DNA from: Escherichia coli
GTDB lineage: Bacteria > Pseudomonadota > Gammaproteobacteria > Enterobacterales > Enterobacteriaceae
Length of the DNA: 64,000 nt
NCBI RefSeq assembly: GCF_003018255.1
Contig: NZ_CP027440.1
Direction: 5' to 3' (one strand)
The translations under genes were made by a program, and so were the position numbers. Every line of letters begins with the position of its first letter. The stretch's first letter is position 1. The notes under the pieces were generated by a model that saw only the letters and a list, made by a program, of their open reading frames with translations, ran no database searches and was not told the DNA's origin. Positions 1,366 through 59,738 of this stretch are shown one piece after another.

Positions 1366-1517
1366 ACCGTTCCTCTTATCTGTATGCCGCCGGAAGCTGA
1401 ACATTCACCGGCCTATAAGGAAATTATTCACGCCACAGGAAAAAGGCGCAAGCATTGCGATAAAGATGGGGATAAAGAGAGAAAAAACAAGGCCCACCGG
1501 AACGGCGGGCCTGAGAA

Positions 1518-4416: not shown

Positions 4417-4491
4417 TGGCTGGGGTACGAGGATTCGAACCTCGGAATGCCGGAATCAGAATCCGGTGCCTTACCGCTTGGCGATACCCCA
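4417..4491 (-). tRNA. glnX: tRNA-Gln (anticodon CUG)
   Basis: 75-nt reverse complement matches the E. coli tRNA-Gln sequence ending CCA; anticodon loop UUCUGAU; ends verified against overlapping ORF codons. Confidence 0.95.
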
Positions 4492-4528
4492 ACTGGGTGC
4501 ACTTACAAGGTAAGCGTCTTGAATAAAT

Positions 4529-4603
4529 TGGCTGGGGTACGAGGATTCGAACCTCGGAATGCCGGAATCAGAATCCGGTGCCTTACCGCTTGGCGATACC
4601 CCA
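4529..4603 (-). tRNA. glnV: tRNA-Gln (anticodon CUG)
   Basis: Identical 75-nt copy of the CUG isoacceptor. Confidence 0.95.
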
Positions 4604-4651
4604 ACAAATTGGTTTTTGAATTTGCCGAACATATTCGACACATTCAGAATT

Positions 4652-4728
4652 TGGTGGCTACGACGGGATTCGAACCTGTGACCCCATCATTATGAGTGAT
4701 GTGCTCTAACCAACTGAGCTACGTAGCC
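4652..4728 (-). tRNA. metU: Elongator tRNA-Met (CAU)
   Basis: 77-nt reverse complement GGCTACGTAGCTCAGTTGGTTAGAGCACATCACTCATAATGATGGGGTCACAGGTTCGAATCCCGTCGTAGCCACCA. Confidence 0.95.
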
Positions 4729-4743
4729 AGATTGTTTCTTCGA

Positions 4744-4818
4744 TGGCTGGGGTACCTGGATTCGAACCAGGGAATGCCGGTATCAAAAACCGGTGCCTTA
4801 CCGCTTGGCGATACCCCA
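4744..4818 (-). tRNA. glnW: tRNA-Gln (anticodon UUG)
   Basis: 75-nt tRNA-Gln with anticodon loop UUUUGAU. Confidence 0.95.
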
Positions 4819-4852
4819 ATAACCGGGCGGTGAACCGCTTATTCGAAGAATA

Positions 4853-4927
4853 TGGCTGGGGTACCTGGATTCGAACCAGGGAATGCCGGTATCAAAAACC
4901 GGTGCCTTACCGCTTGGCGATACCCCA
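4853..4927 (-). tRNA. glnU: tRNA-Gln (anticodon UUG)
   Basis: Second copy of the UUG isoacceptor. Confidence 0.95.
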
Positions 4928-4950
4928 TCCGTACAACGCTTTCTGGTGAA

Positions 4951-5035
4951 TGGTGCGGGAGGCGAGACTTGAACTCGCACACCTTGCGGCGCCAGAACCT
5001 AAATCTGGTGCGTCTACCAATTTCGCCACTCCCGC
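4951..5035 (-). tRNA. leuW: tRNA-Leu (anticodon UAG), long variable arm
   Basis: 85-nt reverse complement GCGGGAGTGGCGAAATTGGTAGACGCACCAGATTTAGGTTCTGG...CACCA. Confidence 0.93.
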
Positions 5036-5043
5036 AAAAAAGA

Positions 5044-5120
5044 TGGTGGCTACGACGGGATTCGAACCTGTGACCCCATCATTATGAGTGATGTGCTCTA
5101 ACCAACTGAGCTACGTAGCC
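5044..5120 (-). tRNA. metT: Elongator tRNA-Met (CAU)
   Basis: 77-nt copy of the metU sequence; first gene of the operon. Confidence 0.95.
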
Positions 5121-17919: not shown

Positions 17920-18366
17920 TTATTTGCCTTCGTGCGCGTGCTCATCTTCGCGGCAATCGCCTTCGGCACAGTGACCGTAAAGATAGAGACTGTGGTTAGT
18001 CAGGCGAATGCCATGTTTTGCGGCGATTTCACGCTGACGCGCTTCGATGGAATCATCACTAAATTCGATAACCTTGCCGCAGTCGAGGCAGATCAGGTGA
18101 TCGTGGTGATGTTGCTGTGTCAGTTCAAATACGGATTTACCGCCTTCAAAATTGTGGCGGGTGACGATACCAGCATCGTCAAACTGGTTCAGTACGCGAT
18201 ATACCGTAGCCAGACCAATTTCTTCACCCATATCGATCAGACGTTTGTATAAATCTTCCGCACTGACGTGATGGTTGTCCGGCTCCTGAAGAACTTCCAG
18301 GATTTTTAAACGAGGAAGCGTTACTTTCAGGCCAGCTTTCTTTAGGGCGGTATTGTTATCAGTCAT
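17920..18366 (-). CDS. fur: Ferric uptake regulator Fur
   Basis: 148-aa ORF MTDNNTALKKAGLKVTLPRLKILEVLQEPDNHHVSAEDLYKRL...HHHDHLICLDCGKV. Confidence 0.97.
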   Translation of the reverse strand: MTDNNTALKKAGLKVTLPRLKILEVLQEPDNHHVSAEDLYKRLIDMGEEIGLATVYRVLNQFDDAGIVTRHNFEGGKSVFELTQQHHHDHLICLDCGKVIEFSDDSIEARQREIAAKHGIRLTNHSLYLYGHCAEGDCREDEHAHEGK

Positions 18367-18445
18367 GCGGAATCTGTCCTGTTACTAAGCGGTTCACTTC
18401 ATTAGGAGAAGTGACAGAATTTGCTCTTGAGATAATGCGTATCAT
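18359..18445 (-). CDS. uof: fur leader peptide Uof (28 aa), translationally coupled to fur
   Basis: Internal ATG at 18445 of track ORF 18359..18595 gives MIRIISRANSVTSPNEVNRLVTGQIPHD; its stop overlaps the first fur codons by 8 nt. Confidence 0.7.
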   Translation of the reverse strand: MIRIISRANSVTSPNEVNRLVTGQIPHD

Positions 18446-18654
18446 TATAGAATTGCCACGCCTAAATGAAAACCACAAGTCCCTGGCAAATATTGTTAAT
18501 AAAAACGTGGCACAGCTTACATTTACAACGGCAAGGCCACTTGAACACCGGGACATTGTACAGGTACAACAGCAAAAGTTACAAATTTGTAGCAATTATT
18601 TTGATTGGCATTATCTATTAATACGGCGTAGACATGAGTCTACGCCGCATCACA

Positions 18655-19185
18655 TCAGGCATTGAGAATTTCGTCGAGATGCAGCTCTTCAGAAATTTGT
18701 TTAACCCATTTTTCTACACGTTCAGCAGTCAGTTCCGGCTGACGATCTTCGTCGATAGCCAGACCGACAAAGTGGTCATCATCAGCCAGACCTTTTGACG
18801 CTTCGAAGTGGTAGCCCGCGGTTGGCCAGTGACCAACGATAGTTGCGCCGCGCGGTTCAATGATGTCGCGGATGGTGCCTAATGCATCGCAGAAGTATTC
18901 TGCGTAATCTTCCTGGTCGCCACAACCAAACAGCGCAACCAGTTTACCATTGAAATCAATCTCTTCGAGAGTCGGGAAGAAGTCATCCCAGTCACACTGC
19001 GCTTCGCCGTAATACCAGGTTGGGATGCCCAGCAGCAGAATGTCATATGCTTCCAGATCTTCTTTGCTGCTTTTTGCAATGTCATGGACATCGGCAACGT
19101 CTTTACCAAGCTGTTTTTGAATCATTTTTGCGATATTTTCGGTATTACCGGTGTCGCTGCCGAAAAAGATGCCAGTGATAGCCAT
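18655..19185 (-). CDS. fldA: Flavodoxin 1
   Basis: Track ORF 18655..19302 trimmed to the ATG at 19185: [29 protein letters not shown]..., 176 aa. Confidence 0.93.
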
Positions 19186-19324
19186 GAGTGAAATAACCTC
19201 TTGAAACTTATTGAAATGGGGGTGGAAAATTGCCCACGGATAAAGGCAATCATAGCAGAACAGGCAGTCTTGCGGAATCAGCAAACGAGCAGGACTGCAC
19301 ACTGTGCTACATGAAAGTGGAAAT

Positions 19325-19618
19325 TTAAACGATGCCCTGACTACGCAGCGCCGCCAGTTGCTGCATTAACATCTCTTCGATCAGCTCGCTACGGCTCATA
19401 TTGCGCGATTCCGCCAGCTCGTTCAGTGCCTCGACAGCTTCCGCGTTCAGCTTCAGTTCGACACGCTTAAGGCCACGTACTTTGTCGCGTTTTAGTTGGT
19501 TGCGTTTATTAATACGCAGCTGCTCATCGCGCGAAAGCGGATTAGTTTTCGGTCGTCCCGGTCGACGCTCGTGCGCGAACAGATCTAATGTCGTACGGTC
19601 CGTTTGTTCTTTGGCCAT
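19325..19618 (-). CDS. ybfE: Small ribbon-helix-helix-like protein YbfE
   Basis: Track ORF 19325..19687 trimmed to the ATG at 19618: [33 protein letters not shown]..., 97 aa. Confidence 0.75.
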
Positions 19619-59620: not shown

Positions 59621-59738
59621 GTAGGCCTGAGAAGACGCGCAAGCGTCGCATCAGGCAACCAGTGCCGGATGCGGCGTGAACGCCTTATCCGGCCTACAAG
59701 TCATTACCCGTAGGCCTGATAAGCGCAGCGCATCAGGC
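59621..59738. repeat. Cluster of three REP units (BIME) in the sdhB-sucA spacer
   Basis: gtaggcctgagaagacgcgcaagcgtcgcatcaggc / gccggatgcggcgtgaacgccttatccggcctac / gtaggcctgataagcgcagcgcatcaggc, alternating orientation. Confidence 0.75.

Follow-up and report, generated by a model that had tools for sequence, protein, structure and literature searches.

What is the short open reading frame that overlaps the start of fur in E. coli, and how would its translation bear on the synthesis of Fur? The question matters because fur encodes the master iron regulator, and the leader ORF uof has become a textbook case of a small RNA that acts on a gene indirectly, through an ORF in its leader. We analysed a 64,000-nucleotide stretch of E. 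coli DNA (the window) in which the genes are ordered chiP, chiQ, fur, uof, fldA, ybfE and ybfF, with fur and its neighbours on the minus strand. An earlier note, made from the letters alone, had described a 28-codon ORF that precedes fur and ends 8 nt inside it. This ORF was found on the minus strand at 18359..18445 and its translation was as quoted in that note (MIRIISRANSVTSPNEVNRLVTGQIPHD): 28 sense codons, beginning with the ATG at 18445..18443, are followed by a TGA at 18361..18359. The fur coding sequence (148 aa) occupies 17920..18366 on the same strand, and its start, ATGACTGA (18359..18366, read from 18366 to 18359 on the minus strand), supplies the 8 nt that are common to both frames, so that the uof TGA falls within codons 2-3 of fur. 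On the other side, the upstream neighbour fldA (flavodoxin 1; 18655..19185, minus strand) ends with a stop codon at 18657..18655. The spacer between fldA and uof (18446..18654) therefore measures 209 bp, not the 290 bp that the earlier note had given, and it is the same range that the note had proposed to scan for regulatory sites. The figure of 290 probably came from the distance between fldA and fur, which is 288 bp (18367..18654).

The call and translation of the ORF were followed by a comparison with annotated genomes. Of 5426 complete E. coli genomes, 5424 contained a match to a 401-nt query across the region, and the RefSeq annotation on the matches with 100% identity reads 'uof: fur leader peptide'. 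Over the 111 nt around uof, identity was at least 99% in 5402 of the 5424 genomes, and uof was annotated in all 30 of the E. coli genomes that were sampled evenly down the ranking. The NCBIfam equivalog model NF011344 matched residues 1-28 of the 28 in the window peptide with 81.3 bits (cut-off 71), and the K-12 peptide scored 85.2 bits against the same model. In K-12 MG1655, uof is b4637 (YP_001491546.1, 'RyhB-regulated fur leader peptide'), and K-12 and the window have in common the fldA-uof-fur-chiQ-chiP locus, the length of uof, the 8-nt overlap with fur and the UCA at codon 6. Outside fldA, the two agree at 360 of 361 compared bases. The sole base of the leader that differs is 18406, in codon 14, which reads CCT (Pro) in the window and TCT (Ser) in K-12, and the same codon is TTT (Phe) in the GTDB representative of E. 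coli. Within E. coli, uof thus has three alternatives at codon 14 (Ser, Pro, Phe), and the variable site falls in the hairpin loop of the leader. The primary paper on uof is said to be that of Vecerek et al. (2007, EMBO J). Taken together, RefSeq, b4637 and the NF011344 score above cut-off bear out the name uof that the earlier note had used, and the ORF at 18359..18445 is the known fur leader ORF of E. coli, which very probably acts by the coupling and RyhB mechanism of the literature. The uof of this window is already described and annotated, and nothing about it is new for E. coli.

The statistics of ORFs would not have led to the same identification. The window contains 391 ATG-initiated ORFs of at least 28 codons, or 6.1 per kb over six frames, and the uof ORF by itself is not beyond chance. 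The overlap is of a similar kind: ATGACTGA holds a stop in both of the frames that fur does not use (aTGA and atgacTGA), and an upstream ORF in either of these frames can therefore extend only 4 or 8 nt into fur. We regard uof as real because it is identical to an annotated and experimentally studied gene, not because of its length or its overlap. Two further ORFs of the region were rejected as candidates. One is an 84-aa ORF on the plus strand (18411..18665), a mechanical ORF without RefSeq annotation; the other is a 78-aa extension of uof from a TTG (18359..18595), which likewise is a mechanical ORF without RefSeq annotation and is interrupted by stop codons in E. albertii and Citrobacter.

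According to secondary descriptions, the translation of fur is coupled to that of the 28-aa uof, and RyhB blocks the initiation of uof and hence the synthesis of Fur (PMC7534054, PMC12683245, PMC11550727). The earlier note had interpreted the arrangement in these terms, as translational coupling with uof as the target of RyhB, and the literature on the E. coli gene supports it. On transcripts that carry the uof AUG, ribosomes would translate uof and terminate at the UGA within fur codons 2-3, and this termination would enable initiation at the overlapping fur AUG. The small RNA RyhB, which is repressed by Fur, would pair around the start of uof and block its initiation, with the consequence that less Fur would be made when iron is scarce. 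The serine codon UCA at position 6 of uof (TCA, 18428..18430, minus strand) may add a second link to iron, as this codon is reported to need ms2i6A-modified tRNA-Ser and to be read preferentially by the methylthiolated form, tying decoding to iron (MiaB; PMC7466049). The decoding of uof would then depend on an iron-sulfur-dependent modification of the tRNA. It is probably the act of translation that matters in all this, the uof peptide itself being irrelevant.

The Shine-Dalgarno-like match in front of uof is weak (-3.6 kcal/mol). The Shine-Dalgarno sequence of fur, AGGA, is located 10 nt before the fur ATG (18377..18380, minus strand), inside an invariant block ACAGGAC. A weak local stem (GGA/UCC plus UUAGU/ACUGA) is predicted to enclose both this sequence and the fur AUG, in a fold that is not significant (z = -0.67). 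The overlap of the two genes and the placement of the fur Shine-Dalgarno and AUG in a weak predicted stem are compatible with coupling. A ribosome-profiling paper mentioning uof was not found among the papers searched.

The promoter region indicates which transcripts could carry an intact uof. The best promoter-like site for sigma-70 (18444..18472, minus strand; 10/12 match) consists of TTTTCA (18472..18467), a spacer of 17 nt and TATAAT (18449..18444), and the last two bases of this -10 hexamer are the A and the T of the uof ATG. Since the -10 overlaps the start codon, the predicted transcription start falls at about 18437, inside codon 3 of uof, and such an mRNA should not translate uof. The -10 hexamer also forms the first six bases of a Fur box (TATAATGATACGCATTATC; 18431..18449, minus strand), which agrees with the consensus GATAATGATAATCATTATC at 16 of 19 positions, straddles the uof ATG and is centred on it, with 15 of its 19 bp within uof. 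The consensus match is unique within the 64 kb and had 0 matches in 100 shuffles, and in related loci the box is kept with a median of 13/19 (81 loci). While the overlap of the box with the core promoter elements is observed, the site as such is predicted from its match to the consensus. The earlier note had expected the autoregulatory site of fur in the spacer between fldA and uof; a Fur box does exist, but most of it lies inside uof. Because the start codon of uof is physically part of the -10 and of the Fur box, chromosomal start-codon mutants of uof are confounded with changes of the promoter and the operator. A Fur-repressed promoter on the uof start codon would produce fur mRNAs that start inside uof and do not translate it, and an intact uof would be present only on transcripts from an upstream promoter-like site or from read-through of fldA. 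Indeed, two fur transcription starts (a and b) have been placed within uof and a separate uof start upstream of the ORF (PMC6191717, PMC7867234), and two RNA species have been seen on Northern blots, a long one with uof and fur and a shorter one for fur (PMC6191717).

The upstream promoter-like site (18555..18584, minus strand; 9/12 match) has TTGTAA (18584..18579) and TACAAT (18560..18555) with 18 nt between them. This site can be considered a candidate source of the uof-containing mRNA, and we infer that the reported uof start may be assigned to it. Its -35, TTGTAA, is abutted by an OxyR-consensus-like site (ATAGATAATGCCAATCAAAATAATTGCTACAAATTTG; 18582..18618), for which we used a pattern of four ATAG/CTAT-type elements with 10-bp spacing beside the -35. 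The site agrees with the pattern at 14 of 20 specified positions, which is the top score of the approximately 128,000 positions on both strands of the window, the score being a count of consensus positions only. Such a putative OxyR-like site beside the upstream -35 fits with the reported control of fur by OxyR (PMC2189734).

The earlier note had proposed a SoxS scan of the same spacer, and this did not yield a site: the SoxS/MarA marbox AYNGCACNNWNNRYYAAAY had no match with two or fewer mismatches in 18446..18654. The nearest match (19294..19312) is upstream of fldA, and the 14 matches observed window-wide, against 16.4 expected, correspond to chance. A spacer without a marbox fits with SoxS acting at fldA, where this control has been located (PMC12683245). 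As to read-through of fldA, a stem-loop of 15 bp directly follows the fldA stop (18619..18652, minus strand; -25.4 kcal/mol) and has no U tract, and a scan for intrinsic terminators over 18300..19350 on both strands returned no terminator-like site. Both results are compatible with the reported co-transcription of ybfE-fldA-uof-fur (PMC4161252).

For the pairing with RyhB, we used as query a RyhB sequence with a match to Rfam RF00057; E. coli genomes contain it once, at 100% identity. When whole-length RyhB was paired with 231 nt, the predicted duplex ran over the full length, had no meaning and did not surpass shuffles, and pairing was assessed instead by duplex runs on the core region and on local windows. 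A region around the start of uof (18412..18463, minus strand) is complementary to RyhB nt 37-77, with an extended predicted duplex of -24.4 kcal/mol. Within this region, one motif lies on each side of the uof AUG, GGCAAU (18457..18452) and GAGCAA (18426..18421). Both are able to base-pair with RyhB at its two UUGC repeats, G44 and C45 included, and G44C45 has been found to be needed for the repression of uof/fur (PMC6191717). Dinucleotide shuffles were as good as the extended duplex in 4.6% of cases (p ~0.05), and the gain in the cofold was no better than that of shuffles. The core pairing alone reached -11.9 kcal/mol, a value equalled in 31% of random 30-nt windows. The sequence is thus compatible with RyhB pairing at uof, but the match is statistically marginal and cannot demonstrate pairing; in a published benchmark, the RyhB-uof model of the literature was not predictable (PMC3018821). 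The strongest local complement of RyhB in these runs was at 18573..18544 (-16.7 kcal/mol, equalled by about 5% of random windows). It lies within or upstream of the upstream promoter, and would be found only on read-through RNA from fldA.

To see how widely the arrangement occurs, we compared 80 fur loci from different Enterobacterales species, or 81 sequences with the window. The conserved blocks are GTTTTCATTT in the -35 region, CTATAATGA.ACGCATTA over the -10 and the Fur box, and AGCAACAGGACAGATTCCGCATGACTGA over the ribosome binding site (RBS) and start of fur. These promoter, Fur-box and RBS blocks extend to Erwinia, Pantoea and Dickeya, and almost all 80 related loci share the fur start ATGACTGA. 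The ORF is less regular. TATAATG is kept in 73 of the 81 sequences, and the ORF that begins there ends on the fur start in 44 of these 73 (the 8-nt overlap in 37, and the ATGA of the other frame in 7), meets an early stop in 24 and shares the reading frame of fur in 4. A uof-type ORF occurs in a part of the Enterobacteriaceae only: Escherichia, most Citrobacter, Enterobacter, Kosakonia, Kluyvera, Phytobacter, Leclercia and Pseudescherichia. Frameshifts nested among these groups break it in C. sedlakii, Citrobacter Awk4, Enterobacter Bisph1, Klebsiella/Raoultella and Pluralibacter UBA, and the overlap is lost by frameshift also in Salmonella and Atlantibacter. The promoter, the hairpin and the fur RBS are kept in Salmonella, Klebsiella/Raoultella, Atlantibacter and the Citrobacter with such a loss. 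The uof-like ORFs of the seven genera other than Escherichia have 28-29 codons, an ATG in the Fur box and the ATGACTGA overlap (37 of 81 sequences, the window included). Only Escherichia peptides pass the NF011344 cut-off; those outside the genus score 65.3 (Citrobacter), 55.6 (Enterobacter), 38.6 and 34.5 bits, below the cut-off of 71, and are therefore unannotated. The codon that ties uof to tRNA modification differs as well, since codon 6 is CCA, not UCA, in Enterobacter and Kosakonia.

Salmonella illustrates the loss. The Salmonella-type leader was seen in S. enterica subsp. arizonae (locus L026) and in loci L084-L089, which were assigned to Salmonella by their 150-aa Fur sequence and by L026. 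The TATAATG/Fur box, the first five codons, the arms of the hairpin and the fur RBS block are as in E. coli. A 1-nt deletion in the hairpin loop leads to a 16-codon uORF (MIRIILSAISVTSLMK) with its stop 30 nt upstream of the fur ATG; there is no overlap, and no gene is called.

The hairpin itself lies inside uof, over codons 11-18 (18394..18414, minus strand), with the arms UCACUUC and GAAGUGA around UCCUAAU (7 bp, -8.5 kcal/mol), and it is the single stable element of the single-sequence fold. Relatives have different stems at this position (CUUCC/GGAAG, GCUCC/GGAGC, CGCUCA/UGAGCG and GCCC/GGGC). In a covariance model of 59 loci, with an alignment that was fitted to the model and is thereby biased towards structure, 85% of the cells were paired and 7 of 9 pairs showed compensatory change. 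None of 500 shuffles reached the observed values, and controls slid along the alignment were 33-52% paired. RNAalifold on a MAFFT alignment detected no more than a 3-bp GGA/UCC stem, which is invariant; the arms of the hairpin were out of register there, so that it was missed. Rfam had no family covering 18359..18660. The hairpin is present whether or not a species has the overlapping ORF, and both the frameshifting indels and the codon-14 polymorphism are located in its loop. Close relatives, Salmonella among them, lack the overlapping ORF but retain a covarying leader hairpin. Conservation of the ORF in relatives, on which the earlier note had staked its reading, holds within Escherichia, Citrobacter and Enterobacter and is in part lost outside them. 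This patchy distribution limits the generality of the uof arrangement, not the identity of the E. coli gene.

Three other explanations of the E. coli locus were weighed together with a wider one. The uof ORF could be an incidental by-product of overlapping conserved elements, in a leader that works as an untranslated 5' UTR and in which the translation of uof has no role. The Fur-box consensus contains an ATG, ATGACTGA supplies the stops, and a run of about 26 stop-free codons between them is not rare; ORFs of this size number 6.1 per kb. In the comparison of species, TATAATG is kept as -10/Fur box in 73 of 81 sequences, yet only 44 of 73 ORFs end on the fur start, with at least five nested losses by frameshift, Salmonella included. 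The substitution pattern is not of a coding type either: codons 6-18 have no excess at third positions (entropy 0.69/0.36/0.68), and among 61 codon variants, 40 are non-synonymous. At the N and C termini of uof, the conserved residues coincide with the Fur box and with the fur RBS in its translation initiation region, both of which are conserved in species without the ORF too. Against this, 49 of 73 loci have no stop in the uof frame before the fur start, as compared with 19 of 73 expected from shuffles of the interior (26% left open), although the control frame ATG+2 is itself open in 31 of 73. Also, despite frame-shifting indels in Mangrovibacter, Cedecea and one Buttiauxella, the ORF reaches the alternative stop ATGA in 7 loci, and several papers report experiments in E. 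coli for the translation of uof, for coupling and for RyhB acting via uof (PMC11550727, PMC12683245, PMC7534054, PMC7466049). With these reports, an incidental ORF is quite improbable. Judging from the comparison of loci, selection for the ORF as such would be modest, weak in one clade, with none for the peptide. Weak selection for an open frame fits with a mechanism that depends on translation and not on its product, and also with a recent origin of the uORF from elements that already existed.

It has to be considered, too, that RyhB may act mainly and directly on fur mRNAs, the short ones included, by pairing at GAGCAA..UGUC (18426..18412) with decay of the mRNA, in which case the translation of uof would be secondary and confined to long transcripts. 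The best local complement of the RyhB core (nt 38-47, with G44C45) is at 18427..18412, downstream of the predicted internal start, and on Northern blots the short fur mRNA falls upon RyhB induction while the long uof-fur mRNA is not destabilised (PMC6191717). However, the pairing energy of -11.9 kcal/mol is unremarkable against the background (31% of random 30-nt windows match it), GAGCAA is replaced by GUGCAA or GUGCAU outside Escherichia, and reviews explain the repression by blocked initiation of uof (PMC7534054). We consider mainly direct action unlikely, and retain coupling with RyhB acting through uof as the explanation for E. coli. A wider reading, which we offer only tentatively, is that uof may be a young uORF restricted to one clade, put together from elements present for other reasons, an ATG supplied by the Fur box/-10 and the two stops within ATGACTGA of fur, the ancestral leader having consisted of the Fur-box promoter, the covarying hairpin and the fur RBS. 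Since the conserved Fur-repressed promoter starts inside uof, control by uof, RyhB and tRNA modification would on this reading be limited to long transcripts, which would originate at the OxyR-type promoter upstream or by read-through of fldA. If this is true, the control by uof would be a layer specific to oxidative stress and not a general feature of Fur synthesis.

The last alternative is a leader peptide of the trpL/thrL type, which would act by transcription attenuation with a terminator before fur. EcoCyc counts uof among its 'leader peptides' (PMC7815308), and a hairpin is present inside the ORF. This hairpin is not followed by a U tract, however, no alternative pairing partner for it was seen, and neither strand of 18300..19350 has an intrinsic-terminator-like site; the overlap with the fur start suits coupling rather than attenuation. 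For want of a terminator we rejected the attenuator, which is scarcely credible here. The known systems that uof resembles in another respect are the leaders thrL and ivbL as targets of GcvB, in which, as for uof, a small RNA prevents initiation at a short upstream ORF, and expression of the downstream gene falls as a result (PMC7534054). While thrL and ivbL act via transcription attenuation, uof-fur has no terminator and would be coupled through the overlap of the two frames.

Folding of the uof sequence, the 28-codon leader ORF that overlaps the start of fur, showed a 7-bp hairpin within codons 11-18 (18394..18414, minus strand), corresponding to about 1450..1475 in the fetched fur loci L002-L064. 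Across these Enterobacteriaceae loci the stem sequences vary and the hairpin is retained, with 85% of the cells paired and compensatory changes in seven of the nine pairs. The hairpin is also retained in species without an overlapping uORF. No Rfam family was found over 18394..18414 (minus strand). Rfam hits elsewhere in the window (4420..5120 and 59624..59694, both minus strand) are seven clustered tRNA genes plus a single naRNA4, a REP-derived nucleoid-associated RNA; they have no relation to the uof finding.

The E. coli variants at codon 14 of uof lie in the hairpin loop. This codon (18406, minus strand) is CCT (Pro) in the window, as opposed to TCT (Ser) in K-12 and TTT (Phe) in another E. 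coli, and all three variants are non-synonymous. Because only two of 30 genomes in an evenly spaced sample matched the window allele at 100%, it appears to be a minority allele.

At the 5' end of uof, translation and transcription signals coincide. The conserved -10 element TATAAT includes the A and T of the uof ATG (both elements within 18443..18449, minus strand), and the Fur box is centred on the same ATG. Thus, a start-codon mutation made in situ would also change the promoter and the operator. Transcripts from this TATAAT promoter should start inside uof. A putative 12-codon mini-ORF in the uof frame (18359..18397, minus strand), which begins with GTG and ends at ATGACTGA, would be available on such short transcripts without the uof ATG. 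Its GTG lies at -31 from fur in the 3' arm of the hairpin, and most Enterobacteriaceae loci carry the same in-frame GTG.

Further upstream, a second promoter-like site (TTGTAA-18-TACAAT, 18584..18555) has its -35 element directly adjoined by an OxyR-consensus match at 18582..18618, which with 14 of 20 positions is the top match in the whole 64-kb window. Directly after the fldA stop codon, a 15-bp stem-loop (18619..18652, minus strand; -25.4 kcal/mol) is strong and lacks a U tract. It does not count as a canonical intrinsic terminator; it may terminate transcription partially, or stabilise the RNA 3' end, while permitting read-through from fldA into fur.

Outside Escherichia, uof-like ORFs of 28-29 codons, with the overlap ATGACTGA as in the window, were found in many genera, including Citrobacter, Enterobacter, Kosakonia and Kluyvera (loci L005-L045, about 1419..1508). 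Their scores against NF011344, the NCBIfam model for the fur leader peptide, run from 65.3 down to 20 bits as compared with a cut-off of 71, so automatic annotation overlooks them. In the Salmonella-type fur leaders (L026, 1423..1500; L084-L089, 523..600), one nucleotide is deleted from the hairpin loop. This leaves a uORF of 16 codons (MIRIILSAISVTSLMK or MIRIILSAISATSLMK) that, unlike uof, does not overlap fur and stops 30 nt before its ATG.
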